Positions 45,990-61,192 of a stretch of 64,000 nt of DNA are shown here, one piece after another (position 1 is the stretch's first letter; the number at the start of each line of letters is the position of its first letter). The notes beneath the pieces were generated by a model that made no database searches, had not been told where the DNA came from, and saw nothing but the letters and a program-made list of their open reading frames with translations. The translations under genes and the position numbers were made by a program. The stretch is from Chloroflexota bacterium (lineage in GTDB: Bacteria; Chloroflexota; Dehalococcoidia; UBA2979): positions 2,482 through 66,481 of the forward strand of contig PBBA01000004.1 in assembly GCA_002716405.1 (NCBI GenBank), given 5' to 3'.

Positions 45990-47285
45990 TTGCTCTCACT
46001 CTACCGAGACATTCGGACCGGCATCATTGATCAATCTACGGGGAAAATTTTCTACGGCTGGTATATAGCTCTTAGTGGCATTGTAATTATCACAATCGCA
46101 ACTGGATTGATTAATCAAGCTTTTGGAGCATACTTTGTTTTGCTTCAGGCTGACTTTGGTTGGAGTAAAACTTTGCTCTCGTCAGGATATGCATTTGCAC
46201 GTATAGAAAGTGGAGTACTGGGTCCCGTTCAAGGATGGTTGATCGATCGTTACGGTCCAAGAATAATCATGACCATTGGACTACTCATCTATGGGTTAGG
46301 GTTTATCGCATTCAGTCAAATTTCTAGTCCACTCACTTTTATTATCACTTTTGCAATTATGTCAGTCGGATCAAGCTTAGGCGGTTTTATGGCATTACAA
46401 GTTGCAGTTGTAAATTGGTTCAATCGTCGCCGTGCACGTGCTCTTATTTTACTTTCAGTCGGACTATCTATGGCTGGTTTTACTGCGCCAATCGTAGCTA
46501 TCGCTCTAGATTATTTTTCATGGAGAAATGTTGCTATTTGTTCAGGTCTTGTAGTTTTATTTGTAGGACTACCATTAGCACAACTAGTACGCCATCATCC
46601 ACATGAAAAAAATACATATGTCGATGGAATTATCAGTAATGGTGATGATAATTCACCTAACATCACAGAGATTTCACCACACCAGTCAAATGACTTAACT
46701 CCAAGACAAGCTCTCAAAACTCAAGCTTTTTGGTTTATTTCATTAGGCCATGCTGCTGGAGTGTTAGTTGTTAGTGCAATTATGGTTCACATGATTCCGC
46801 ATCTCACGGAAGAATTAGATTACTCTCTAAGTAAAGCTGGTTTAATTACTGCTATCATCCCGTTTGCTATGTTACTAGGAAGGTTTACTGCTTTATTTTT
46901 TGGAGAAAAGTATGACAAAAGAAAAGTAGTTGTTGTCGCAATGCTTGGGCATACGATTGCTTTACTTTTACTTGCTTATGCGCAATCAACATGGATGGTA
47001 ATTTTATTTGCATTAATTATAGGAACTTCTTGGGCAACCAGAGGCCCTCTCACTCAAGCCCTTCGTGCTGACTATTTTGGAACTAAAGCGTTTGGAACGA
47101 TCATGGGATTTTCTTCAATGATAGTGATGCTAGGCTCAATAGCAGGCCCCATTACCGCAGGTATTCTGGCTGATCTCACAGGAGATTACAAATTTGGTTT
47201 TACACTCTTGGCAATCTTAGCTGGCTTAGGATCAGTATTTTTTCTAACAGCCTCTCCACCGAAAACATCCATCCCGCAAAGTTAA
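45990..47285 (+). CDS. MFS transporter (oxalate/formate antiporter-like family)
   Basis: 12-TM pattern. N-terminal FYGWYIA and G.L.DR.GPR loop. The TTG start lies only 18 nt after the tRNA, and there is no ATG before the first TM segment. Confidence 0.75.
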   Translation: MLSLYRDIRTGIIDQSTGKIFYGWYIALSGIVIITIATGLINQAFGAYFVLLQADFGWSKTLLSSGYAFARIESGVLGPVQGWLIDRYGPRIIMTIGLLIYGLGFIAFSQISSPLTFIITFAIMSVGSSLGGFMALQVAVVNWFNRRRARALILLSVGLSMAGFTAPIVAIALDYFSWRNVAICSGLVVLFVGLPLAQLVRHHPHEKNTYVDGIISNGDDNSPNITEISPHQSNDLTPRQALKTQAFWFISLGHAAGVLVVSAIMVHMIPHLTEELDYSLSKAGLITAIIPFAMLLGRFTALFFGEKYDKRKVVVVAMLGHTIALLLLAYAQSTWMVILFALIIGTSWATRGPLTQALRADYFGTKAFGTIMGFSSMIVMLGSIAGPITAGILADLTGDYKFGFTLLAILAGLGSVFFLTASPPKTSIPQS

Positions 47286-47991: not shown

Positions 47992-49074
47992 ATGCCACTC
48001 GAAATTTTTAAAGTATCAGAAGATGATGCAGTTCATGTATCAGATGCATGGCTGTTCGACATTACAAAAAAAATATTTGAGTACGTAGGAGTTCCTTCTG
48101 AAGATGCCTCGCAAGCCGCAGATGTACTTGTCCAGGCTGATCTACGAGGTGTTGATAGTCATGGGGTTTCAAATATGCTTCGTAATTACGTGGCATCTTA
48201 TCAAGAAGGAGCATACAACCCCACTCCTTCTTGGGAAATTGTACGAGAGCGAGCCTCTACTGCAACTATCGAGGCTGATCAAGGACTTGGTATCATTATT
48301 GCACCTAAAGCAATGAAAATAGCTATTCAAAAAGCCAAAAAAACCGGATTCGGTGTTGTCACAATCCGCAACAGTGCTCACATGGGTATGGCTTCTTATC
48401 ATGCCATGCTAGCACTTGAACATGACATGATCGGAGTATCTATGAGTGCAATAGGTTCAGGTGTCTTCCCTACCTTTGGTTCAGAAGGAAGGTTTGGTAC
48501 TAATCCTATTGCTATTGCTGCTCCTGCATTAAATATGCATCCTTTTGTATTTGATATTGCCACTAGTATTGTTGCTGGTAATAAATTAAGACTAGCCAAA
48601 AGATTAGGCACTGTTATGCCGGCAGGCCTTTTTGCAGATGCTGACGGAAATATTGTCGATACTGCAGGACAAGTCCCTGAAATATATAACATGATCCCCA
48701 TTGGCGGAACTCGAGAACATGGATCACATAAAGGGTATGGTTTTGCTCTAATGGTCGAGATACTTTCAACATTGTTATCAGGTGGGATACCATGTACTTT
48801 ACTCGAGACAGGGCGTCCTGCAACTCACCATGTCGCTGCATACGATATCGATGCATTTACTGATGTTCAAGAATTTAAAGAAATGATGGACAAATGGCTT
48901 AAACACCTAGAAGATACACCACCTGCTCCAGGACATGAGAGGGTCCTTACACCCGGCCTAGAAGAAGAAGAGGCCACGATAAAACGTAAAGAAGAAGGCA
49001 TACCACTACACCCAGAGGTAATAGACTGGTTCAAGGTAATCTGTGATGAATTTTCTATTCCGTTTAAGTTATAA
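47992..49074 (+). CDS. Ldh_2-family oxidoreductase (malate/L-lactate/sulfolactate/ureidoglycolate dehydrogenase type 2)
   Basis: ADLRGVDSHGV, R.S.H.G....Y, G.NP.A.A.P and HKGYG.A.MVE are hallmark motifs. Confidence 0.8.
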   Translation: MPLEIFKVSEDDAVHVSDAWLFDITKKIFEYVGVPSEDASQAADVLVQADLRGVDSHGVSNMLRNYVASYQEGAYNPTPSWEIVRERASTATIEADQGLGIIIAPKAMKIAIQKAKKTGFGVVTIRNSAHMGMASYHAMLALEHDMIGVSMSAIGSGVFPTFGSEGRFGTNPIAIAAPALNMHPFVFDIATSIVAGNKLRLAKRLGTVMPAGLFADADGNIVDTAGQVPEIYNMIPIGGTREHGSHKGYGFALMVEILSTLLSGGIPCTLLETGRPATHHVAAYDIDAFTDVQEFKEMMDKWLKHLEDTPPAPGHERVLTPGLEEEEATIKRKEEGIPLHPEVIDWFKVICDEFSIPFKL

Positions 49075-49082
49075 ATCAATAT

Positions 49083-50084
49083 TCATTGAATAACCCAATG
49101 GAGAGGTTCACTTTTACGCCATCGCATCAAGTTTTCAAAAAATCTTTGCGCTGATCTCTCATGATATTTATCAGAGATTGCCGAATTATGTGGAGTTACA
49201 ATTACATTAGGTAGTGTCCAAAGAGGTGAAACTGGTGGCAAAGGTTCTTCTTTAAAAACATCAAGATAGGCACCACCTAGATGTCCCGAAATTAATTTTT
49301 GCGTTAGAGATTCTTCATTAATTACAGGACCACGAGATACATTTATTATTCGGGAACCTTTCGGTAACTTTGACAAACGCTCAGCACTAATCAAACCTTC
49401 AGTTTCATCATTAAGTGGGCAAGAAAGTACTAACCATTCTGCCCTATGTAAAAGATTGTCTAACTCACTATTATCATATATCTCATCGACACCTTCAGGT
49501 ATGTCACTGACATTGCGTCTAATCCCAATCACATGCATCCCAATCGATTTTGCATATCGTGCCACACGTCTCCCTATCTCACCTAAACCAATAATCAACA
49601 ATGTTTGACCACCGATATCAGGAGGTGCGTCATCATAATGAATCGGAGCCCAAACACGCTCGATCTGAGATTCTCTCCAATACTTAAAAGGGCGTCCCAA
49701 CCAAAGTATAGCCGCCAATACATTTAGTGCTATCGGCTCTGCATTGGCACCAGGAGAATTTGTAATTGATATATCTCGATTACTAAGTTGAGGGAAATTT
49801 TTGGGATTTATACCCACAGCAAAAAAATGTAACCATTTTAAGTTTTTTGCACGCGCTAAAGTTTCCAAAAATATATCACGCCTATACCGAATATCATTCG
49901 AAAAAAAAGCAACTTGTACATTACTTAAAATGTCCTCGGGTATTATTTGATCATTATCAACATCAATAATAATGCGAGTTGTTTGTACACCGGGACCTGA
50001 TTCTACTACAGATAATTCCGAATCAAATCTCTCAACAAATTTTTTACTAAGTAGTACACCAAAATCCATTATCTTTTCCTGCAA
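49083..50084 (-). CDS. D-2-hydroxyacid dehydrogenase (NAD-binding), last gene of the selenoprotein operon
   Basis: LLIIGLGEIGRRVARYAKSIGMHVIG Rossmann motif. N.SRGP.I.E..L, YLDVF..EPL and TPH. Confidence 0.8.
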   Translation of the reverse strand: MQEKIMDFGVLLSKKFVERFDSELSVVESGPGVQTTRIIIDVDNDQIIPEDILSNVQVAFFSNDIRYRRDIFLETLARAKNLKWLHFFAVGINPKNFPQLSNRDISITNSPGANAEPIALNVLAAILWLGRPFKYWRESQIERVWAPIHYDDAPPDIGGQTLLIIGLGEIGRRVARYAKSIGMHVIGIRRNVSDIPEGVDEIYDNSELDNLLHRAEWLVLSCPLNDETEGLISAERLSKLPKGSRIINVSRGPVINEESLTQKLISGHLGGAYLDVFKEEPLPPVSPLWTLPNVIVTPHNSAISDKYHERSAQRFFENLMRWRKSEPLHWVIQ

Positions 50085-50096
50085 TATATAACCATA

Positions 50097-51179
50097 TTAA
50101 AATGAAACAATTGGGCGAGTTATAGCTTTCTCAGTAGCCCCCCATGTTGGAACAAAAGTAGCTTTAATACCCACCCCACCTGTAACGATAATAAGTATAT
50201 CTTCAGGTGATATTGCAGAAAATATATGCTCTGATTCTGCAATACCAAGTTCAATACGATTAGCTGTTATTCGAGAAACAGCGTGTGGAGACAACCAAGA
50301 TAAAGGCGTTTTTGATTCATCATACAAAGCTTCTTGAAATCTTTCTCGATCCCAGCCTTGTTCAGAAAGGAATTGTGCAGCTTCAGGGGGAAGAAGAATT
50401 GCAGGTTGACCTCCACCAAAAGATTGCCTTCCCAAATTACCTGCGATGAGCATCGATCGAGACATAGTACGCACCAAATCTTCAGCTGTGGTCTGTGGAA
50501 GTACAACTTCCACACTCCCAACACCTGCTATGACTGTCACCGTACTCTCATCAAGTTTAAATCCTCTTGTAGTATGAAAAGGTGGCCACACACTACCTTC
50601 TTCATTTTCTGCGATTAACCAAGTATATTTACCAGAATGACCATGTGTTGCCATATCACCACTACCGGGAATAGCAAAGGCGATGTTTTGTAAAGCCAAA
50701 CGAATTGCTCGCCCTATAGTTGCATTTGGTTTCGATCCTTGCCCGAGAACATTATGAGAGTTGTTAATACGGAGTTCGTTAATTATTGGACCATTGAGAG
50801 TGATTAGTGGTGCGGCAGCTCCCGTGGTCGTTTGAATGCCGAGAAGATTGAACTCAGGATCTGTCATAGCGTCTAAAGCTGAGGCAATTAATGGAACAAC
50901 TCCAAGATCACAGCCAGCCAAAACTGCACATGCAGCAATATCTCTTAAGTTTGGAATCACAAAGCCTGGGGGAAGTGGCATTTGAGTCGCAGATAATGTT
51001 GGATCCAAACTACCCAGCATTTGGTCAATTTTTTCAGCAGTAGGTGCAATTACAGGTAAACCGTCTGTAAGTCCAGCATTATAAAGTACTATATTAGCAC
51101 TATCTGCACTTGTGAATTCATCTTCAAGGTCAACTAATCGTTCACAGATAGGACGGATATCTAACGGTGGAGTTGTCAT
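50097..51179 (-). CDS. Uncharacterised conserved protein, paralog B of a tandem pair
   Basis: Shares ordered motifs with 51193-52269: TDGLP(V/I), AGC, EFNL.GIQ.TT, LNGPI, G.G...N.TIGRA.RLAL.NI, PG.GD.ATHG, AENE and GG.G......PT.G. No family recognised. Confidence 0.6.
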   Translation of the reverse strand: MTTPPLDIRPICERLVDLEDEFTSADSANIVLYNAGLTDGLPVIAPTAEKIDQMLGSLDPTLSATQMPLPPGFVIPNLRDIAACAVLAGCDLGVVPLIASALDAMTDPEFNLLGIQTTTGAAAPLITLNGPIINELRINNSHNVLGQGSKPNATIGRAIRLALQNIAFAIPGSGDMATHGHSGKYTWLIAENEEGSVWPPFHTTRGFKLDESTVTVIAGVGSVEVVLPQTTAEDLVRTMSRSMLIAGNLGRQSFGGGQPAILLPPEAAQFLSEQGWDRERFQEALYDESKTPLSWLSPHAVSRITANRIELGIAESEHIFSAISPEDILIIVTGGVGIKATFVPTWGATEKAITRPIVSF

Positions 51180-51192
51180 CAGTAACGTCTAG

Positions 51193-52269
51193 TCAGGAGA
51201 AAATAGAACGAACAGGATCACCATTTGCCGTCTCTATTCTACGTGAAACGGTATCAGTACCTCCAAATGTAGGTAACCAACATGAATGTTTACCTGGTCC
51301 CCCAGCTACTATTACATCAATATCATTCCAAGTTTCAGCGACACGAAAACCTTCTGGATGTACTGCACCAGCCGTGCCGCTTCTTCCTCCGTCTAACCAA
51401 TCTTGAGCTTGATCGCTAAATTTGAGTATCGTATTTTCCCAAACAAACTTTTTCACATCGTCTTTAGAATAACCATCGTGAGCTATTTGCTCAGCATGCT
51501 CAGGACCAAAAATTATCATTGGTTCACCTCGACCGCCGATATTATTACTACCAGACTGTCTTAATGATGTGGTCACTGTAGTTAAAAGGCCCTTACCACT
51601 AATGCTTCCATGATCATTAATGTTATGTGGAGCTTCACAAGCTAACACCGTAACAACATTATCATCCTTAGCAAATCCATTTTCCACATGAAGTGGTTCC
51701 CAAGGGTTTGCGGTTTCGTTTTCTGCAGTACAAAAAGAAATTTTTGCTGGTGTACCGTGGGTAGCACGGTCACCATCACCAGGAGTGCCTCCTCCTATGT
51801 TAAGAAGTGCCAAACGTACAGCACGTCCTATTGTCATATTAGATCTAGTGCCTTGTCCAAAACAGTTCGGGCCACTGTTTATCCCTATTTCTTGTGCGAT
51901 TGGACCATTCAAAAGTACAAACACTGCACAAGGGTGTGTAGTAGATTGGATACCATTTAAATTAAATTCATCTTCAGCAACGGCTTGCAATGCAGCAATT
52001 ACAACAGGGAAATATTCTGGACGACACCCTGCCATCACCGCATTCGTGGCAATCCGTTCCAGAGTTGCTTCACCGTTGCGTGGACCCAAAGTTGCGATTA
52101 CATCATCGTTACTCCAATCAACGTACTGACAAATTTCTTCAACACGTGAGCGAGTCGGTGGCACAATGGGTAAACCATCAGTCCATCCTTGTGTTTCAAA
52201 AAAGTCTTGCACAGCTTCTAATGAATCTTCTAGTTCAACAATTGGTGGCAGATCAAGATTAACTGACAT
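51193..52269 (-). CDS. Uncharacterised conserved protein, paralog A of a tandem pair
   Basis: See 50097-51179. A GAGGAA RBS lies 4 nt upstream of the ATG. 13-nt gap to paralog B. Confidence 0.6.
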   Translation of the reverse strand: MSVNLDLPPIVELEDSLEAVQDFFETQGWTDGLPIVPPTRSRVEEICQYVDWSNDDVIATLGPRNGEATLERIATNAVMAGCRPEYFPVVIAALQAVAEDEFNLNGIQSTTHPCAVFVLLNGPIAQEIGINSGPNCFGQGTRSNMTIGRAVRLALLNIGGGTPGDGDRATHGTPAKISFCTAENETANPWEPLHVENGFAKDDNVVTVLACEAPHNINDHGSISGKGLLTTVTTSLRQSGSNNIGGRGEPMIIFGPEHAEQIAHDGYSKDDVKKFVWENTILKFSDQAQDWLDGGRSGTAGAVHPEGFRVAETWNDIDVIVAGGPGKHSCWLPTFGGTDTVSRRIETANGDPVRSIFS

Positions 52270-52333: not shown

Positions 52334-52855
52334 CTAATCAGCACCCATTAAGCTACTTACTGAAGAAGCAGCATCTGGAACTTTTTTCAACACTTCTTCA
52401 GGATCGATACCTCCAAGCGGATGTTCGATAGTGATAATCCGTAAATCAGGAAAACCCATAGCACGAGCCTGGAGGTGTGCTAACTGAATAAAAGCACTAG
52501 TAGCTAAAGTAACTGTTGGAGTTCCTCTTTTTTCAAGTTCTACTGAAGCGTGGATACTCCACGCTGTGCAAGAACCTCAATCAGCACTCCCAACCATTAC
52601 CCAGTCATTTTCAGCAGCCAACTCGTCAAGTATCGCTGGGTCAGCGGGAGTTGAAACTGGCTTGTGACGAGTCATGGAGTGAATTACTCCATATCGCTGA
52701 CCTAATTCTTCGGCAATAGAAGTCATCACAAGTTCTGCATGTTGTTTCCCATTTTCCAGAACACCAACTATCGATTCCCTTATTTCAGGAAAATCTTCTA
52801 GTTCACCTACAGCTGCAGGTTCTGGAGCAGTAGGGTTATGTAATTCAATAACCAT
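52334..52855 (-). CDS. Predicted selenoprotein with UGSC motif (in-frame UGA = Sec at 52577-52579), 173 aa
   Basis: The track ORF 52577-52885 ends at TGA. The same frame continues ...VMVGSAD-U-GSCTAWSIHASVELEKRGTPTVTLATSAFIQLAHLQARAMGFPDLRIITIEHPLGGIDPEEV... for 80 codons to TAG 52334-52336. A hairpin lies immediately 3' of the TGA. Start taken as ATG 52855, which has AAGGAG 6 nt upstream; the track start was TTG 52885. Confidence 0.75.
52536..52576 (-). promoter_or_regulatory. Candidate bacterial SECIS hairpin directly downstream of the UGA
   Basis: Read on the minus strand: lower stem GGUUCU/AGAACU (6 bp, one G-U), a 5x5 internal loop, a perfect 8-bp upper stem AGCGUGGA/UCCACGCU, and apical loop GUA about 20 nt after the UGA. 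Confidence 0.6.
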
Positions 52856-52917
52856 GTCATTCTCCTTAACGTTACTTGTATCCAAACATAAACCGAAAAA
52901 CTTCTCAAGTATTTATC

Positions 52918-53802
52918 TTAAATACCTATTAAGTTTTCTGGATTTTTACATACCATTTGATGTACTTGATCAGCGTCAAAGCCTACTTCTAAAAGGCATT
53001 CAATCCACATACCCATCCCTAGAGGTGGTGACGGATTATTGATCTGTCCCAAGTCAGTTGAGGCGATAATTTGCTCAACACCAACTGCTTTAATTTGTTC
53101 AGCAATAGATCGTACTGACTCACCATCATCATTCCGAAATGCAGCTAACCCACAGTGTTCAATATATACACCAAGACCTGCAAGTTCTTGTTGAACTTCG
53201 ACAGGAATACCAAATGAAGCATGAGTTATGACACTACGTATTCCACGCTCACGAGCTATTCGCAACAACACCAAAGTTTCTTGAGGTGAAATATGACCAC
53301 TGGCTAAAACAGCATCGTGACTAGCTATTTCATCTAAAATATCATGGCATTCAGGTAACAATTCACCCGCATCATTAAGAATTGGAATACCAGCACCCTT
53401 ACTAAAAAAATTACCACCTCGATCGCGATAAGCTGCTGAATCAAAAGTAGGCATCCAAATTACTGTTGCACCAATAGCAAGAGAGACTGCAACTGCGTCA
53501 GGATTCAAGCCTCCAACTCCCCAATCAAGAGCTACGCTACCATAGACATCTATACCATCAAATTCCGTATCAAGTGCCCAAGCAATAGGTTGTGTCGCAT
53601 AATCATGACTCTTCAGGACCAACCCACCCATCCCAGCTTCGATCGCTGAAACAACTAGTTCACGAGAGTCGGTCCGCCTTTCTGTATAGGGATCTGGAGC
53701 AGCATGAACATGCATATCTATCGCACCGCGTATAATATCCTTTACCTCAGGTCTTAATTCATCTAAGTTCGTTGCTTGTAAAGCTGAAAAAGTCATTTGC
53801 AC
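52918..53802 (-). CDS. Amidohydrolase-fold metal-dependent hydrolase (DUF6282-like by recollection), first gene of the selenoprotein operon
   Basis: N-terminal metal motif IDMHVHAAPD, then GMGGLVLKSH. Further His/Asp positions (ASGH, ITHASF, STDLGQ) are spaced as in TIM-barrel amidohydrolases. Confidence 0.6.
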   Translation of the reverse strand: MQMTFSALQATNLDELRPEVKDIIRGAIDMHVHAAPDPYTERRTDSRELVVSAIEAGMGGLVLKSHDYATQPIAWALDTEFDGIDVYGSVALDWGVGGLNPDAVAVSLAIGATVIWMPTFDSAAYRDRGGNFFSKGAGIPILNDAGELLPECHDILDEIASHDAVLASGHISPQETLVLLRIARERGIRSVITHASFGIPVEVQQELAGLGVYIEHCGLAAFRNDDGESVRSIAEQIKAVGVEQIIASTDLGQINNPSPPLGMGMWIECLLEVGFDADQVHQMVCKNPENLIGI

Positions 53803-53897: not shown

Positions 53898-55079
53898 ATG
53901 AGAAGAACATTAAATATTTTTTTTGTTGCCCTGAAATTAGGCTTTATTTCCTTTGGTGGTCCTGTAGCTCATCTCGGATATTTTCGTGAAACATATGTAC
54001 AAAATTTAGAGTGGCTTGACGATACAACATTCGCAAAGTTGGTTGCTTTATGCCAAATATTACCTGGGCCAGCAAGTAGCCAAGTCGGAATGGCAATTGG
54101 AGCCTTGCGTGGAGGTGTATGGGGAGGATTATTTTCATGGGCCGGATTCACATTACCCTCTGCCGTAGTATTAATATTTTTCGGATTTGCTATAGATAGC
54201 TTTAATTTACAAGATAGTGGGTGGATGGTAGGTTTAAAAATCGCAGCAGCAGCAGTAGTCGCCAATGCATTATGGGGAATGTCTCGCTCATTAACACCAG
54301 ATAGAGCACGTATTACAATAGCGATAATTGCTGCGATTTTATTGCTTTACGAAAGAACAATTATTACACAAATACTTATTCTTGTTGCTGGAGCAGTTAT
54401 TGGATGGAGATTAAAACTATCACCAATTAGTAATTTTAAACCTACTCAAAATCTTCATTGGAAACTAAACAAAATAATCGCTATCAGTTCGATAGTGATA
54501 TTCTTTTTATTGTTGATACTTTTGCCGATTTTGAGAGAATTTTATACTTCACAATACACATCTTTATTCGACAGTTTTTATAGAACTGGCTCTCTAGTTT
54601 TTGGAGGAGGTCATGTTGTATTGCCTTTACTTGAATCAGAGGTGGTCTCATCAGGTTGGTTAAGTAAAGATGAATTCATTGCAGGTTATGGAGTTGCTCA
54701 GGCCATTCCAGGACCTTTGTTCACATTTGCTGCATATATAGGAACAGTGGCAAATATTGAACCAAATGGATTAAGCGGTGCACTTATAGCATTATCTGCT
54801 ATTTATTTACCTTCTTTTTTATTATTAGCTGCTGTTTTACCGTTTTGGCAACAATTTACAATGAACCACAAATTAGAAGCTGCCTATGCAGGGATGAATG
54901 CTGCAGTTATCGGACTTTTGGTGGCGGCTTTTTATAATCCAATATGGACACATACAATCACAACTGCTTCATATTTTTCATTATGGTTAATTGCAACAAC
55001 ACTATTAATGGTTTGGAAAACCCCACCATGGATAGTAGTTTTACTTTCTGCCGTAGGTGGATACGTTTTAGAATTATAA
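53898..55079 (+). CDS. chrA: Chromate transporter (CHR family, ChrA-like)
   Basis: Duplicated CHR domain with FGGP.AH.GYF and a second-half FGGGHVVLPLL. Multi-TM protein. Confidence 0.8.
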   Translation: MRRTLNIFFVALKLGFISFGGPVAHLGYFRETYVQNLEWLDDTTFAKLVALCQILPGPASSQVGMAIGALRGGVWGGLFSWAGFTLPSAVVLIFFGFAIDSFNLQDSGWMVGLKIAAAAVVANALWGMSRSLTPDRARITIAIIAAILLLYERTIITQILILVAGAVIGWRLKLSPISNFKPTQNLHWKLNKIIAISSIVIFFLLLILLPILREFYTSQYTSLFDSFYRTGSLVFGGGHVVLPLLESEVVSSGWLSKDEFIAGYGVAQAIPGPLFTFAAYIGTVANIEPNGLSGALIALSAIYLPSFLLLAAVLPFWQQFTMNHKLEAAYAGMNAAVIGLLVAAFYNPIWTHTITTASYFSLWLIATTLLMVWKTPPWIVVLLSAVGGYVLEL

Positions 55080-55086
55080 CAAACTT

Positions 55087-56331
55087 CTACCAAGCTGCTT
55101 CCATTAAATCAATCGCACCTTGGAGTGCTTGATCTGCATCTCTTAAACCTGAATTGAAATTGAACACTTTGATAGTCTCTTTTGCAATTTCAGGAAAGTC
55201 TTCTTTGGGAATATTTAACTCACTAATTCGAGTTGGCATTCCCACTTTTTTATACAAGTCTTCTATGCCATCAGCGATTGCCAATTTAGCGTCTTCAGCA
55301 GACATACCTGTAGCCCATACATCCATAGCTTGAGCAACCCTACGTGCTGTTTCTAAATCAGGAGCAGGGCTTCTTCGTGCGACTGTGGCTGTAAGGACTG
55401 AAGTAGATTCACCTTGCCAGACATGTGGGTAACGAATGTGTAAAGCAGTAGATATGGCATAGTTCCCTGAAAATGCCTGAGTAGCAGGATTTTGACGACC
55501 TCTGACCTGTTCACCATCATCTTGGACTCTATTACCTAAAAGAGCTGCGACGCATAAATCCATACGTGGCCCAATATCGTCAGGGTTTTCATAAATCCCC
55601 AGGTAACCTCTTTTCAGTAAACGAAGAATATGTTCTTTGTCTCCTTCGACTAAGGGATTAGAGGGAACTGCAACAGCAGCAACTGAACCAGCAAACCCTG
55701 TAGTCGCAGTAGATCTAAATAGTTCATAGGGAGAATCCAATATCGACTCGTGATCAAAGATCAAACCGATTGGGCGGGTTTTTGGATCAAAGTACTCCAT
55801 ACGTTGGTCAAGATCGGGATTAGCTAATCCCGAACCTCCGCGATTCATAGCACCTGTCGGCGTCGTTATAACATTAATAATAGGTAGCTTTGGGGCATTT
55901 AGCCGTGGACTATAAGCAGGTTTACCTTCAGGATACTGAGTCATAATTTCAAAAGGATCGCCTTCTTCACAAAGAAAAATATCAATTACACGTGTTGCAA
56001 CAATCACACTGCCACCGCCAACTGATATCAATAAATCTGCACCTGCTTCCCTGGCAGCTTCAGTCGCTGCCATAACTGAATTGTATGTTGAATCTATTTC
56101 GATACCATCAAAATACCCTGCGAAAGAATCTCCGAGTGCTCCCTTAATACGCTCAATATTTCTTGTTTTACTGGAAATTGACTTAGAACAAATTACAAAA
56201 GGTCTTTTCGCACCTGCTCTAATTACTAATTCCTTCAAACGATCTTCTATAGCTTCTTCTCCGGCAAATAAACGCCAATCAAATCCTCGTGCAGCAAAAG
56301 AATTAATATCGCCCATATAAAGACCTTTCAA
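55087..56331 (-). CDS. Iron-containing alcohol dehydrogenase family protein
   Basis: ..VGGGSVI..A and I..I.TT.TGA are Fe-ADH fold motifs. Paralog of the partial gene at 63562-64000. Confidence 0.7.
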   Translation of the reverse strand: MKGLYMGDINSFAARGFDWRLFAGEEAIEDRLKELVIRAGAKRPFVICSKSISSKTRNIERIKGALGDSFAGYFDGIEIDSTYNSVMAATEAAREAGADLLISVGGGSVIVATRVIDIFLCEEGDPFEIMTQYPEGKPAYSPRLNAPKLPIINVITTPTGAMNRGGSGLANPDLDQRMEYFDPKTRPIGLIFDHESILDSPYELFRSTATTGFAGSVAAVAVPSNPLVEGDKEHILRLLKRGYLGIYENPDDIGPRMDLCVAALLGNRVQDDGEQVRGRQNPATQAFSGNYAISTALHIRYPHVWQGESTSVLTATVARRSPAPDLETARRVAQAMDVWATGMSAEDAKLAIADGIEDLYKKVGMPTRISELNIPKEDFPEIAKETIKVFNFNSGLRDADQALQGAIDLMEAAW

Positions 56332-56364
56332 ATATCGCTCTCAATAGATCCATAGTTAGTATTA

Positions 56365-57654
56365 CTATCCTGATCCAATAACACCAGACTGAATCAATTT
56401 CTCCACATGTTCAGGATCGATGCCGTGCTCGATCAATACTTCTGCACTATCTGCACCTAAAACTGGTGCATGCCTTTGTATAATCGTAGGAGTTTCGGAC
56501 ATTGTTGCTACAGGACCAACAACTTTTTGAGGACCAGTAATTGGATGGATAAGATCTTGCATGATTCCCAATGCAACTACTTGAGGATCTTCTGACATTT
56601 CCTCAGGTATATTCACTGGGGCACATGGCACGCCTGCCGCTTCAAGTTCCACAATCCATTCATCAATAGGTTTAGTCAAAATTATTTCAGCAACTCTATT
56701 TCTTAAATCTTGAGCTGCGACTATGCTAGCCGGATCGTTGGCATCAAATTCAGGATCATCGCTATGATCGTCTGTTATCCCAAGCACTTTTCTTGCAGAT
56801 TGGCGTGTCGCAGGTGTCAAAGCTCCTAATACTAGAAAACGGCCATCTGCCGTCTGATAACCACCATAGTAAGATCGAAAATGCGCTCGCATACCACGAC
56901 CTTTAGCACGAGCAGCTAATATTTCTGGGTACGAAGCTTTATTATCACGTAAGAGTGATATTTCTTCCATCATCCCATCACGTGTTACAGCATCGTGCAC
57001 AGGTTCACGCATTACATTGGTGTCTTGAATTGCCAAACCTGCACGTAACAATGAAGTTTCGATTTTTTGACCTTCGCCGGTTTTTTCTCTATGTAAAAGA
57101 GCGGCATTAATAGAAGTAGCAGCAGAAAATCCTGCACAATAATCTGCGATTGAAGAACTAGTCACACCAATAGGCAAGCCGTTTTCATCAACCTTAGCTT
57201 CGCCAACCATTAAACCTGTATATGCTACACCAACAACATCTGTTCCTGCGCGATTCTTTAGCGGTCCCTCCGATCCGAAACCAGTAATTTCGCAGTAAAT
57301 TAACTTTTCATTCAATTTCTTTAACGATTCGTAATCAATACCTAAGCGTTCTGCTACACCAACACGAAAATTAATTAACACCACGTCATAATCAGGAATA
57401 ATTTGATAAATCAAATCTCGACCATCAGGGGATTGTAAATCAACAACTAAACTACGTTTTCCACGATTAAGGGATTGCCAACGTTTCCCTAACCCTGGTA
57501 TTACAGCACCGGCATTACGATGTGGATCGCCTTTTGGGCCTTCTACCTTAACTACATCTGCACCTTGATCTGACAAGATACAACCACAAAAAGGGGCAGC
57601 AACAATTTGAGTAAATTCCAAAACACGAATGCCTCGAAGAGGACCTGCAGCCAT
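56365..57654 (-). CDS. Family III CoA-transferase (CaiB/BaiF type)
   Basis: N-terminus GPL.GIRVLEFTQIVAAPFCG..L.D.GADV.KVE. and the downstream D....N.RK.S. pattern. Confidence 0.85.
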   Translation of the reverse strand: MAAGPLRGIRVLEFTQIVAAPFCGCILSDQGADVVKVEGPKGDPHRNAGAVIPGLGKRWQSLNRGKRSLVVDLQSPDGRDLIYQIIPDYDVVLINFRVGVAERLGIDYESLKKLNEKLIYCEITGFGSEGPLKNRAGTDVVGVAYTGLMVGEAKVDENGLPIGVTSSSIADYCAGFSAATSINAALLHREKTGEGQKIETSLLRAGLAIQDTNVMREPVHDAVTRDGMMEEISLLRDNKASYPEILAARAKGRGMRAHFRSYYGGYQTADGRFLVLGALTPATRQSARKVLGITDDHSDDPEFDANDPASIVAAQDLRNRVAEIILTKPIDEWIVELEAAGVPCAPVNIPEEMSEDPQVVALGIMQDLIHPITGPQKVVGPVATMSETPTIIQRHAPVLGADSAEVLIEHGIDPEHVEKLIQSGVIGSG

Positions 57655-57706
57655 AATTACCTCACTACACCTTAGAGAAACCCAACTTAACTCTAAGATA
57701 TATAAA

Positions 57707-58564
57707 CTAAGTACCTGTAAAGGTTGGGTCTCGTCGTTCCATCAGTGCAGCTTTTGCCTCTTTAGCATCATTAGAAACATTTAATACATGAGCAGCATTT
57801 GATGTCAGTACTGCAGCTGTTTCTAAATTACTATCAACTGCTGCACGCAAATTCCTTTTGTTAATCCATTGTGTAATTGGTGGATGTTTAATCATTCGTG
57901 CACAAAGGTCACGTACTTCCGATTCTAGATCTTCAGCAGGCACTAATTTATTTAATACTCCCCATTGATATGCCCTCTCAGCATCTAAATGGCCCGTGTA
58001 AGCAAATTCAAGTGCACGCCCAAGGCCTGCCAATTTCGTTAAATGATACGCTCCACCATTTTCAATGATCTGACCAACTTGGTGATAGGAAATATACCGC
58101 ATGTGCTCAGAGCCATAACGAATGTCACAAGCAAGTGACAGGTCCATACCAAATCCTGCAGCTACACCATTGATCATTGCAATAGTAGGTTTACGTATAT
58201 AATTGACGTCTTTGATTAGCTTAGTCACTCCATAAAGGAAGCTTTCACGAGTTTGGTCAGGGCTATCAGGATGCTTGACAGATCCGAGGAACGGGCCCCC
58301 TCCATCATATCCTTCAACTCCACGAACATCCACGCCAGCAGAAAAAGCTCGACCTACGCCTGTCAAAACGATAACGCGAACATCAGGATCGTCATCACCT
58401 GCACGCATATATTCGCCAACTTTTGCTAATGTACCAAATCTTTCAGATTCACCAATGCATGCATTCAATCTCTCTGGTCGGTTGAATTTAATCCACAAAA
58501 TTCCATTATCTTCTTTTTCATATAGCAAATAAGGAACTAAATCTAAAGCGTGATCGGACATCAA
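57707..58564 (-). CDS. Enoyl-CoA hydratase/isomerase family protein
   Basis: I.FNRPERLNA, LTGVGRAFSAGVD and INGVAAGFGMDL.L.CD. C-terminal AKEAKAALMERRDP.F. Confidence 0.85.
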   Translation of the reverse strand: MMSDHALDLVPYLLYEKEDNGILWIKFNRPERLNACIGESERFGTLAKVGEYMRAGDDDPDVRVIVLTGVGRAFSAGVDVRGVEGYDGGGPFLGSVKHPDSPDQTRESFLYGVTKLIKDVNYIRKPTIAMINGVAAGFGMDLSLACDIRYGSEHMRYISYHQVGQIIENGGAYHLTKLAGLGRALEFAYTGHLDAERAYQWGVLNKLVPAEDLESEVRDLCARMIKHPPITQWINKRNLRAAVDSNLETAAVLTSNAAHVLNVSNDAKEAKAALMERRDPTFTGT

Positions 58565-58623
58565 AACCCTCTCTTTCTATGCGCAATAAAACGACAATAT
58601 ATCAACACCAAATCCTAAAATAT

Positions 58624-59760
58624 TTACTCATCATCCAACTGCAACGTAGGCATTAATTTTGCTAGTTGCCTACGGTGATAGCGTGGTTCGCCTAAAGCAT
58701 GGAACAACGAACGAGATTGCCTAGTGTATAACGTTAATCCATATTCACGAACCACCCCTGTACCTGCATGAACTTCATGACCATAATCACATGCATGCCG
58801 ATAACCATCACTGGTTACTGCCTTGGCAAGGTGAATAGCAGCCTCAGTTTGACGTCCAGTATCCATCTTCCACAATGCTTCGTAAGTGGTCCAACGTGCA
58901 GAATCCAAATGAATAACCAATTGGACTATATGATTTTGAACAAATTGGAATCGACCTATTGGACGCCCAAACTGTACTCGATCACGACTATACTGCACTG
59001 ATAGGTCGAATACAGCCTGTGCTCCACCAACTTTGTATGCACACAACAACGGAGTTGCGCGCATTAGTGCTACATGTAATCCTTCAGCAACTGCATTAAC
59101 TTCACCCAATAAAGCTGATTTAGGAACGCGCGCATTCTCAAATGTCACAGAACTTTCTGAAGATGTAAAACCTTCTAATTTCCGTGCTGATACACCTGGA
59201 ATACTGGTGTCGACCAACAATAAGCTAATATCGTTGTCATCTGAACCAGTACGAATAGCTGTAATTATTAAATCAGCGGCATGGCCATCATAAACAAATG
59301 ATTTTTCACCGTTTAATATATAATCATCACCTTCTTCATTAGGAGCTAATTGCACACCGGCATTTCCCCATTGGTAGTCTGGCTCAGCCATGGCTAATGT
59401 GGCAATTAGTGATCCATTCGCAATTCTAGTTAAATAATTCTCTTTTTGGGCATCATCACCCAATTCTTTTATAATTTCACCTGCAAGAACTGTTGAGAAA
59501 AATGGTCCTGGAACTGGTCCTTTACCCAAAGCTTCAAATACAACCCCTGCGTCTGTATAACCAGTATTACTGCCACCATATTCTTCAGGAATCAGCATAC
59601 CAAGCCAACCAAGCTCCCCGGCAGTACGCCACATTTCATCTGAAAAACCACGCTCAGTTTGTTGTAATTCAATTAATGTTTCTATCGGAGCATCACGACT
59701 AACAAAGTCATCAACTGCCTGTTTTAACATTTCTTGTTGGTCAGTTAAAGAAAGATCCAT
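58624..59760 (-). CDS. Acyl-CoA dehydrogenase
   Basis: Three-domain ACAD pattern: E.GW.G...PEEYGG, a beta-domain, then the C-terminus Y...R.QFGRPIG.FQ. Confidence 0.85.
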   Translation of the reverse strand: MDLSLTDQQEMLKQAVDDFVSRDAPIETLIELQQTERGFSDEMWRTAGELGWLGMLIPEEYGGSNTGYTDAGVVFEALGKGPVPGPFFSTVLAGEIIKELGDDAQKENYLTRIANGSLIATLAMAEPDYQWGNAGVQLAPNEEGDDYILNGEKSFVYDGHAADLIITAIRTGSDDNDISLLLVDTSIPGVSARKLEGFTSSESSVTFENARVPKSALLGEVNAVAEGLHVALMRATPLLCAYKVGGAQAVFDLSVQYSRDRVQFGRPIGRFQFVQNHIVQLVIHLDSARWTTYEALWKMDTGRQTEAAIHLAKAVTSDGYRHACDYGHEVHAGTGVVREYGLTLYTRQSRSLFHALGEPRYHRRQLAKLMPTLQLDDE

Positions 59761-59842
59761 TTTCTACCCCCCGTTTGAGAAAACACTCCCTCTGCATCAA
59801 GAAGATATAGGGGAGATTTCTAATTTAAAAAATAATAGATTT

Positions 59843-61066
59843 CTATTCGACAGTCTTACCTGCTTTATAACGTTCAGCTTCAGAACGACCCATACCAATT
59901 CGTCTAGCCATTAATACTTTCTGAACATCTGCAGTACCACCAGGGTGAAGTGCAACAATCGCACTTCGTTGGTAAGCATCAAGTGCACCTTCAGAGAAAT
60001 CTGTAATTTCATCATTAGTCAGGGCATATGGACCAAAGAGCTCATGCAAAGCAGTAGTAATATCCAAACCTGAAAGCTTTCGGAAATAAGAAGACTGAGG
60101 TCCTTCATACGTCATAGATTGATGAGTTCTATTCATCCAGAAATTTCGGATTCCAAATAATCTCTGAATTTCGGTCTTTTCATATATTTCGACCAATCGA
60201 TCTTGAGCATCAGAATCTTCAACTAAAGGCCTACCATTCAATTGACGTGCTCGAGCCCATTCTAGTGCACGGGAGAACCAAAGGTTACGAGAAACTGAAC
60301 CACCGGCACCGTGCTCAAGTTCGAGGTGTGTAGTTGCAACTTGCCACCCATTATTTTCTCCACCAACTAAGCGCTCAGCTGGAACTCGAACATTGTCAAA
60401 GTAAACGGTGTTTTTGACACCAGATCCGACACCTTCACCTCCGTCTCCTAATAAATCCATAGGACGGATAGTAATACCAGGAAGATCGGCAGGTATCATA
60501 AACCAACTCAAATTCTTATGTCGTTCGCCTTCGGGATCCGTTCGTGTAAGAGTCCAAAGCATATCAACACCATTTGAACCGCCTACATAAATCTTCTCAC
60601 CATTTACAATATAATCATCACCATCACGTACAGCGTCTGTTTGTGTACCAGCAAGGTCCGATCCTGCTTCTGGACCAGTTAAAAGTTGCCAAGTAACAAC
60701 ATCACCCTTGAATATAGGAGGAAGAAGTGATTGTTTCTGTTCGTCAGAACCCCAAACTAGTATTGAGGCGCCACCAAGCCAACCACCTGAATCATAGTAA
60801 GGAGGAATCGAAAGGTCACGTCGACTCATTTCTTCATAGAGCACGACAGTTTCTTCAAATCCCATACCTCCACCACCGTATTCAACTGGTGCAGTAGGGC
60901 GTAACCATCCTCTTTGTCCTAAATCACGCCCTAATTGACGAAATTTAGCATAGTTTTCCGGAGAATCTTGATCCCCTTCAATAACTGGAGCATGATCATC
61001 CAGCCAACTTCGAACTTCTTTTCGAAAAGCCTCCTGTTCAGGAGTATATGATGGTGCAAAATCCAT
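59843..61066 (-). CDS. Acyl-CoA dehydrogenase
   Basis: ACAD pattern: P.EYGG.G, TGPEAGSDL, G.K.Y.. I prefer ATG 61066 (MDFAPSYTPEQEAFR, GAGGA RBS). The track start at 61171 adds 35 non-homologous residues. Confidence 0.85.
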   Translation of the reverse strand: MDFAPSYTPEQEAFRKEVRSWLDDHAPVIEGDQDSPENYAKFRQLGRDLGQRGWLRPTAPVEYGGGGMGFEETVVLYEEMSRRDLSIPPYYDSGGWLGGASILVWGSDEQKQSLLPPIFKGDVVTWQLLTGPEAGSDLAGTQTDAVRDGDDYIVNGEKIYVGGSNGVDMLWTLTRTDPEGERHKNLSWFMIPADLPGITIRPMDLLGDGGEGVGSGVKNTVYFDNVRVPAERLVGGENNGWQVATTHLELEHGAGGSVSRNLWFSRALEWARARQLNGRPLVEDSDAQDRLVEIYEKTEIQRLFGIRNFWMNRTHQSMTYEGPQSSYFRKLSGLDITTALHELFGPYALTNDEITDFSEGALDAYQRSAIVALHPGGTADVQKVLMARRIGMGRSEAERYKAGKTVE

Positions 61067-61192
61067 AATTCCTCGATTCTTAACACTATTCGGTATAAAC
61101 AGCTCGTTAAATACGAGCTTGGTGATCCGACTACGAACTGCTATTACAGCTATTTCAGGGCTGTTTGTCAACTCATTTAATACAAACTTTGA

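Follow-up and report, generated by a model that had tools for sequence, protein, structure and literature searches.

The UGSC gene and its in-frame UGA

The window analysed here is a 64,000-nt (64-kb) stretch of contig PBBA01000004.1, from an assembly (GCA_002716405.1) assigned to a Chloroflexota bacterium of the class Dehalococcoidia. Its minus strand carries a gene of the UGSC selenoprotein family (52334..52855), with an ATG start codon at 52855-52853, a TAG stop codon at 52336-52334 and, as codon 93, an in-frame UGA (52577..52579). A Shine-Dalgarno-like AAGGAG lies on the same strand 6 nt ahead of the ATG (52862..52867); this motif and the UGA were both read directly from the sequence. Immediately 3' of the UGA, with no nucleotide in between, a hairpin begins within the coding region. 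An original prediction had proposed this hairpin (52536-52579 with the UGA, minus strand) as a candidate bacterial selenocysteine insertion sequence (bSECIS), and we followed up this proposal computationally.

Reading through the UGA gives a product of 173 aa, selenocysteine (Sec) included. The protein reads ...VGSAD-U-GSCTAWSIHASVELEK around the Sec, with the motif ...GSAD-U-GSCTAWS. Scored with C in place of U, it reached 129.5 bits against NCBIfam NF041046, "UGSC family (seleno)protein" (curated cut-off 125), and 142.9 bits against Pfam PF24696, "UGSC" (cut-off 25). In an alignment with 14 full-length Cys homologues, the UGA column coincided with the first Cys of an invariant ADCGSCTAWS, which places the U of the window and the C of the homologues in the same U/C-G-S-C motif. 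The gene is a member of an already catalogued selenoprotein family.

Public gene calls have missed this. Two of them, P0001 (97% identical, 102 aa) and P0015 (49% identical, 97 aa), end exactly at ...GSAD, and the calls stopping at the UGA (52577-52885 in the window) are named 'hypothetical protein'. The selenoprotein is mis-annotated as a shortened open reading frame (ORF) in the source databases; the correct product is a 173-aa selenoprotein, not a 102-aa hypothetical protein, and it is for such annotation that the finding is chiefly of value. Elsewhere in the window TGA is an ordinary stop, ending 10 of the 50 long ORFs, and in a search of the 64 kb for other credible genes with an in-frame TGA, every case turned out to be spurious or to involve adjacent genes. 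It follows that the recoding is a local matter and does not reflect a change of the genetic code.

Among prokaryotic selenoproteins, the UGSC-containing protein is an established family, with a UxxC motif and with 255 Sec against 21 Cys forms in the Global Ocean Sampling (GOS) data, and it is among the most abundant selenoprotein families of aquatic metagenomes (PMC2398784). Later reviews also include it, one of them with NF041046 (PMC13188914) and another being PMC9312934, and in a survey of sequenced bacteria its tabulated counts are 26 and 33 (PMC5029168). In the part of the GOS supplement that we searched, no UGSC-family sequences were found. The family has been known since the Sargasso Sea and GOS surveys. 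Both the element and the mechanism are already known, and the window adds no more than a further member whose stem is locally rebuilt. The gene implies the use of Sec by a marine Dehalococcoidia-like organism.

A closely related comparison gene, obtained from the genome scan, lies on contig JAKUNM010000008.1 of a Dehalococcoidia metagenome-assembled genome from Station ALOHA (hereafter L050). The two UGSC genes have 92.9% nucleotide identity and 100% protein identity. All 37 codon differences between them are synonymous: 15 are found 5' of the UGA and 21 in sense codons 3' of it, and the last is a TAG to TAA exchange at the true stop. Only two differences fall within the hairpin, one on each strand of its internal loop (TGC to TGT on the 5' side, TCA to TCT on the 3' side). 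The neighbouring genes are 86-98% identical in protein, and the window accordingly very likely derives from a related marine organism of the class Dehalococcoidia. In the window, the frame stays open for 80 codons past the UGA, and single-chain Cys homologues carry the homologous sequence as their C-terminal half. To judge by these comparisons, the region 3' of the UGA is translated.

Structure of the hairpin and fit to known SECIS elements

The hairpin has two tiers. Counting the U of the UGA as nt 1 and reading along the minus strand, the lower stem begins with the 5' arm GGUUCU (52571..52576, nt 4-9), which covers the codons Gly-Ser. It is followed by the 5' side of an internal loop, UGCAC (52566..52570), and by the 5' arm of the upper stem, AGCGUGGA (52558..52565, nt 15-22). 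The apical loop is GUA (52555..52557), corresponding to G23, U24 and A25. On the way back, the upper stem 3' arm UCCACGCU (52547..52554) leads into the 3' side of the internal loop, UCAGU (52542..52546), and into the lower stem 3' arm AGAACU (52536..52541), which lies within the codons Val-Glu-Leu. The limits of the two internal-loop sides were taken from the sequence and the fold together. The spacer between the UGA and the upper stem, GGUUCUUGCAC, is 11 nt long and consists of the lower 5' arm plus the 5' internal-loop side. The upper stem-loop (RNA AGCGUGGAGUAUCCACGCU) has 19 nt, i.e., 8 bp and the GUA loop, and spans nt 15-33.

In RNAfold, the minimum free energy (MFE) structure of a 56-nt piece was the two-tier hairpin, at -20.9 kcal/mol. 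Dinucleotide shuffles gave -11.95 +/- 2.55 kcal/mol, corresponding to a z of -3.5 for the hairpin, and 1 of 200 shuffles was equally good. Within a 161-nt context, both stems were kept in the MFE and in the centroid structures. The hairpin is real. The geometry described originally, a 6-bp lower stem, a 5x5 internal loop and a perfect 8-bp upper stem, was recovered at 52536-52579 on the minus strand, and the RNAfold check that had been suggested returned the same structure. The apical loop had been said to start with G about 20 nt from the UGA, and the sequence gives 19 nt (6 + 5 + 8). The further argument, that a perfect 8-bp stem is unlikely to be fortuitous, is weak when taken alone. Perfect 8-bp hairpins matched 26 times in the window, nested registers included (~15 distinct sites), against 9.5 +/- 3 in shuffles. 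The case for the hairpin is instead made by its placement after a Cys-aligned in-frame UGA and by its conservation in Sec forms, not by stem length alone.

The bSECIS model asks for a loop of 3-9 nt, an upper stem of 4-16 bp, a distance of 16-37 nt between UGA and loop and an MFE of -7.5 kcal/mol or lower (PMC13188914, Fig. 2 legend). One of the first two nucleotides of the loop is expected to be a G, as a rule with a G or U after it (PMC13188914). With a 3-nt loop, 8 bp, GUA, 19 nt and -20.9 kcal/mol, the hairpin lies within all of these limits, in agreement with the fit to the general bacterial model that the original prediction had claimed. Compared with the bSECISearch consensus of Zhang and Gladyshev, no feature of the window falls outside the model; the model is loose, and a fit to it is weak evidence when taken alone.

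The SECIS of Escherichia coli has its essential upper stem-loop 11 nt from the UGA, at nt 15-31 (minimal 17 nt), with a bulged U17 and with G23 and U24 in the loop (PMC8659212). The upper stem-loop of the window resembles the E. coli fdhF/fdnG elements in that it, too, starts at nt 15 behind an 11-nt spacer and has G23 and U24 in its loop. It differs from them in its perfect 8-bp stem without a bulged U, in its 3-nt loop and in its unrelated sequence. The loop of the E. coli SECIS is the 4-nt GGUC. By analogy, the element of the window may work like the one of E. coli, without belonging to that sequence type.

Conservation of the upper stem-loop in Sec-containing relatives

We searched a species-representative genome collection for Sec forms using the IUPAC pattern A-D-UGA-G-S-C-T-[A/S]-W (TGA), which returned at least 120 loci. 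All counts for Sec forms given here refer to a set of 121 distinct UGA-containing sequences among the matches listed. The listed loci span Dehalococcoidia, Acidimicrobiia, other Actinomycetota, Beta- and Gammaproteobacteria, Rokubacteria/Methylomirabilota, Dormibacterota, Myxococcota, Desulfobacterota and a Neobacillus. The window gene shares with the family the U-G-S-C motif, the alignment of Sec to Cys and the position of the hairpin within the ORF. Its upper stem-loop is near-identical to those from Dehalococcoidia, Acidimicrobiia, Beta- and Gammaproteobacteria, Rokubacteria/Methylomirabilota, Dormibacterota and the Neobacillus.

All eight upper-stem pairs were formed in 75 of the 121 Sec forms and seven of the eight in another 31. 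Over the whole set, the upper helix was 91.9% paired (ungapped alignment A2), a total that none of 1000 column shuffles reached. The apical loop was GUN in 105 of the 121. Three of the upper pairs showed changes on both sides: G-C to A-U six times at one, U-A to G-C three times at another, and G-C to A-U nine times or to C-G once at the third. Pairing at these three pairs exceeded that of column shuffles, of which only 0-2 in 1000 were as high.

The window and L050 combine the two rarest of these double changes at the basal upper pairs, having AG...CU instead of GU...AC. Their basal pairs are thus A-U and G-C, whereas most family members have G-C and U-A. The rebuilt pairs needed a Ser to Ala and an Asp to Ala replacement (TAWSIHA instead of TSWSVHD). 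This would be a case in which the SECIS stem of a lineage was rebuilt by two compensatory changes that forced two replacements near the active site, with RNA structure driving protein sequence. Besides these basal pairs, the window differs from the family in its AT-rich genome (~40% GC), most members being GC-rich.

Two subgroups of the Sec forms deviated from the common hairpin. Five members of Desulfovibrio/Syntrophobacter type (L023, L066, L073, L093 and L109, motif GSCTSWLVVDQ) were without the common GUCGUGGA/UCCACGAC stem. They had a different 7-bp hairpin, GGCUGGU-AGUUG-ACCAGUC, located ~5 nt further 3', whose loop likewise has G followed by U close to its start. In this subgroup, one SECIS seems to have taken the place of another within a single protein family. 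A Dehalococcoidia subgroup with the motif GSCTAWGLHD (22 sequences, e.g., L005, L007, L017 and L024) had a weaker upper stem of 6-7 of the 8 pairs, in which the second pair is a G-A mismatch and the closing pair is G-U, and kept a GUC loop.

One locus (L002, contig DASRWT010000003.1) is labelled Candidatus Nitrosocosmicus sp., so that a UGSC gene with a bacterial in-ORF hairpin is found on a contig binned to an archaeon. The contig is probably mis-binned, because the local protein resembles members from Rokubacteria, Methylomirabilota and Dormibacterota.

Comparison with Cys forms and codon choice

For comparison, we searched with the same pattern carrying TGY and retrieved 120 metagenome loci, from which 91 distinct intact Cys-codon genes were obtained. 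We also looked within the Sec loci for Cys paralogues, as an internal control, and found none. The upper stem was 67% paired in the 91 Cys forms, compared with 92% in the Sec forms, and it was without covariation, 756 of 1000 column shuffles being as high. The Cys forms are still paired to this extent because their Ser-Trp and His-Asp codons pair for free. The mean MFE of the upper 23 nt was -10.6 kcal/mol in Sec and -5.4 kcal/mol in Cys forms, despite the higher GC content of the latter (Mann-Whitney p = 2e-19; the two sets were drawn from separate collections and lack phylogenetic independence, so that p-values overstate significance). Among the top eight loop triplets listed for the Cys forms, which account for 89 of the 91 sequences, GUN did not occur. 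The covariation in orthologues that had been proposed as a check is accordingly seen for the upper stem-loop, which is kept in Sec forms with compensatory changes and relaxed, without such changes, in Cys forms; it does not extend to the lower stem.

The contrast persisted when the protein was held constant. With the residues fixed at TSWS[VIL]HD, 71 Sec forms could be compared with 22 Cys forms. The second Ser, which contributes to the loop, was encoded by AGU in 71/71 Sec forms and by AGC in 22/22 Cys forms. The Ile, Val or Leu codon ended in C in 71/71 Sec forms, compared with 6/22 Cys forms, and the full 8-bp stem was formed in 63/71 and 5/22, respectively. The U of AGU is the second nucleotide of the loop, and the C of the Ile/Val/Leu codon closes the stem beside it. 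In the window itself, the stem is built from minority codons of an AT-rich genome: GCG makes up 8% of the Ala codons, CAC 24% of those for His, ATC 20% of those for Ile and AGT 21% of those for Ser. This comparison of Sec and Cys codons provides a clean illustration of an mRNA segment with two codes, one for the protein sequence and one for a putative SelB-binding structure, and it shows selection at the RNA level for the upper stem-loop only.

Weighing of the possible roles of the hairpin

The data are best explained by the hairpin being the bSECIS of a UGSC-family selenoprotein gene, whose UGA is read as Sec. We give this reading a probability of about 0.9. The interpretation offered in the original prediction is supported for the upper stem-loop. 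Several observations weigh on the other side. The stem is perfect and has no bulged U like that of the E. coli fdhF element. The hairpin had no Rfam match, either at gathering thresholds, where only a tRNA was found in the window, or at E <= 10. The Sec and Cys sets have the different origins stated above. The UCG-UGG/CAC-GA part of the pairing comes free with the conserved Ser-Trp...His-Asp residues. Finally, ARAGORN and Rfam searches of the 64-kb window detected tRNA-Lys only and none of the Sec machinery, with selA, selB and selD not specifically sought and only part of the ORFs annotated.

If the whole two-tier structure were the functional unit, the lower 6-bp helix would be needed for recoding. 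This helix is perfect in the window and in L050 and is part of the MFE and centroid folds, and among the listed Sec forms 10 have 6/6 and 22 have 5/6 of its pairs. Its pairing is, however, equal in Sec (60.7%) and Cys (60.3%) forms and shows no covariation, with 64/1000 and 416/1000 shuffles as high, respectively. The apparent compensation between GGU/GAA and GGC/GAG follows the genome GC content. Ribosome geometry also speaks against a need for this helix, as its 5' arm, 1-6 nt after the UGA, would have to be unwound and single-stranded when the UGA is in the A site, and in E. coli the determinant is the upper stem-loop 11 nt from the UGA (PMC8659212). A requirement for the lower helix is thus unlikely. 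We conclude from the sequence comparisons that the upper stem-loop is the element under selection; for the lower stem, selection is not demonstrable. From the two-tier element as first described, the upper tier was retained, being selected, Sec-specific and covarying; the lower tier was not, as it is neither conserved nor Sec-specific and lacks covariation. A different objection concerns the upper stem itself, which could be a by-product of the conserved residues T-A/S-W-S-V/I-H-D/A and have no function at the RNA level. The codons for Ser-Trp (UCG UGG) are by nature complementary to those for His-Asp (CAC GAC), and 6-7 of the 8 pairs form in Cys forms that share these residues, all 8 in five of them. 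Yet most Cys forms carry SWLMRD and are unable to form the stem, compensatory double changes occur in Sec forms only, and the stem of the window is made of rare G/C-ending codons in an AT-rich genome. The synonymous-site contrast between Sec and Cys forms with fixed amino acids, taken together with these codon data, therefore excludes a mere by-product, although part of the stem comes free; we would leave it a probability of a few percent at most.

Two further explanations dispense with Sec altogether, and we consider both of them extremely improbable. The UGA might be a true stop of a split gene or pseudogene; lying between two ORFs, the hairpin would then serve as terminator, attenuator or stability element. 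The public gene calls that end at the UGA and the failure to see Sec machinery in the window would agree with this. The 80-codon open frame with its homology to single-chain Cys homologues disagrees, as do the 21 of 21 synonymous sense-codon differences from L050 3' of the UGA and the presence of the same TGA in at least 120 genomes. A scan for terminators and promoters around the hairpin found nothing, and there is no U-run after the stem; we rejected the hairpin as a terminator. Alternatively, the UGA might be read through without Sec, by a near-cognate Trp or Cys tRNA or under a reassigned code, the hairpin doing no more than slow termination. In general, read-through can be promoted by stable hairpins downstream, and Sec at this position is deduced from sequence. 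Against this, the window uses the standard code (TGA ends 10 of its 50 long ORFs), homologues have Cys at the position, which is part of a UxxC redox motif typical of selenoproteins, and a SelB-type GU loop is found at the canonical distance from the UGA.

Proposed mechanism of Sec insertion

For the reading of the upper stem-loop as a bSECIS, a mechanism can be proposed on the basis of the E. coli and Moorella systems. The C-terminal domain of SelB, which carries GTP and Sec-tRNA(Sec), would bind the 19-nt upper stem-loop. With the UGA in the A site, the 11-nt spacer would lie inside the mRNA channel, with the upper stem-loop at the channel entrance; the lower 5' arm, which is part of the spacer, would be unwound because of its location inside the channel. 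The tethered SelB would deliver Sec-tRNA(Sec) in competition with release factor 2. The ribosome would then melt the hairpin, translate it as Thr-Ala-Trp-Ser-Ile-His-Ala and complete the 173-aa protein with its U-G-S-C redox motif. It is from the analogy with these two systems that we infer the putative SelB binding, the actual insertion of Sec and the probable irrelevance of the lower stem at decoding.

Genomic neighbourhood and partner protein

The UGSC gene is part of a same-strand cluster in the order DUF6282, UGSC, a 358-aa protein, its 360-aa paralogue and a 2-hydroxyacid dehydrogenase. The upstream DUF6282 gene (52918..53802, minus strand; PF19799, E = 1.9e-57) is probably in the same operon as the UGSC gene. 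It is not a conserved neighbour, being found near the UGSC gene in only 4 of the 120 listed Sec loci. The 358-aa protein is encoded 64 nt downstream of the UGSC gene (51193..52269, minus strand) by a conserved partner gene of an uncharacterised family, followed by the paralogue, with 34% identity to it (50097..51179, minus strand), and by the 2-hydroxyacid dehydrogenase (49083..50084, minus strand).

In 73 of 101 testable Sec loci and 63 of 80 Cys loci, the gene immediately downstream, in the same orientation, encoded a homologue of the partner. Anywhere in the locus, it was present in 95 of the 101 testable Sec loci. At E <= 0.001, the partner family comprises at least 7998 clusters; every one of them is named 'hypothetical', and none has a precomputed Pfam domain. 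The partner protein itself had no Pfam, NCBIfam or PDB sequence match. Its AlphaFold model was confident (pTM, the predicted template modelling score, 0.89; AF2). The best PDB fold match, a class I fumarate hydratase, had an E-value of only 0.02 and a template modelling (TM) score of 0.27; it is meaningless, and we rejected it as a fold relative. We tentatively suggest, at somewhat less than even odds, that UGSC and the ~355-aa partner may form a widespread undescribed two-gene module, a Sec/Cys-dependent redox enzyme. The linkage between the two genes is a usable lead toward the function of the UGSC family and the most promising open thread of this analysis.

A PDB sequence search with a UGSC profile returned nothing significant. 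We modelled the UGSC fold on the Cys homologue P0002 (pTM 0.83). In the predicted structure, five parallel strands form an alpha/beta sandwich, and the CGSC motif lies where a helix begins, at its N-terminus. The model is weakly flavodoxin-like or SIS-type, with a TM score of 0.5 or less to any PDB entry. This generic flavodoxin-like fold says nothing on function. The modelled fold is also not an obvious thioredoxin fold, unlike the suggestion of an earlier paper.

The selenoprotein B components of glycine and D-proline reductase (GrdB/PrdB) share with the window protein a UxxC motif and a weak local similarity near the Sec motif. The similarity was found with TIGR01917 (E = 0.0026), residues 79-149 aligning to model positions 333-397. 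At 16.7 bits, this hit falls far short of the cut-off of 602, and the window protein is much shorter and is not a member of that family. A further difference from GrdB/PrdB is that the partner protein of the UGSC gene has no detectable similarity to any family.

Beyond the cluster, the plus strand carries an MFS (major facilitator superfamily) transporter (45990-47285), an Ldh_2 gene (47992-49074) and a chromate transporter (53898-55079). The minus strand encodes, at 55087-61171, an iron-containing alcohol dehydrogenase (Fe-ADH), a family III CoA-transferase, an enoyl-CoA hydratase and two acyl-CoA dehydrogenases.

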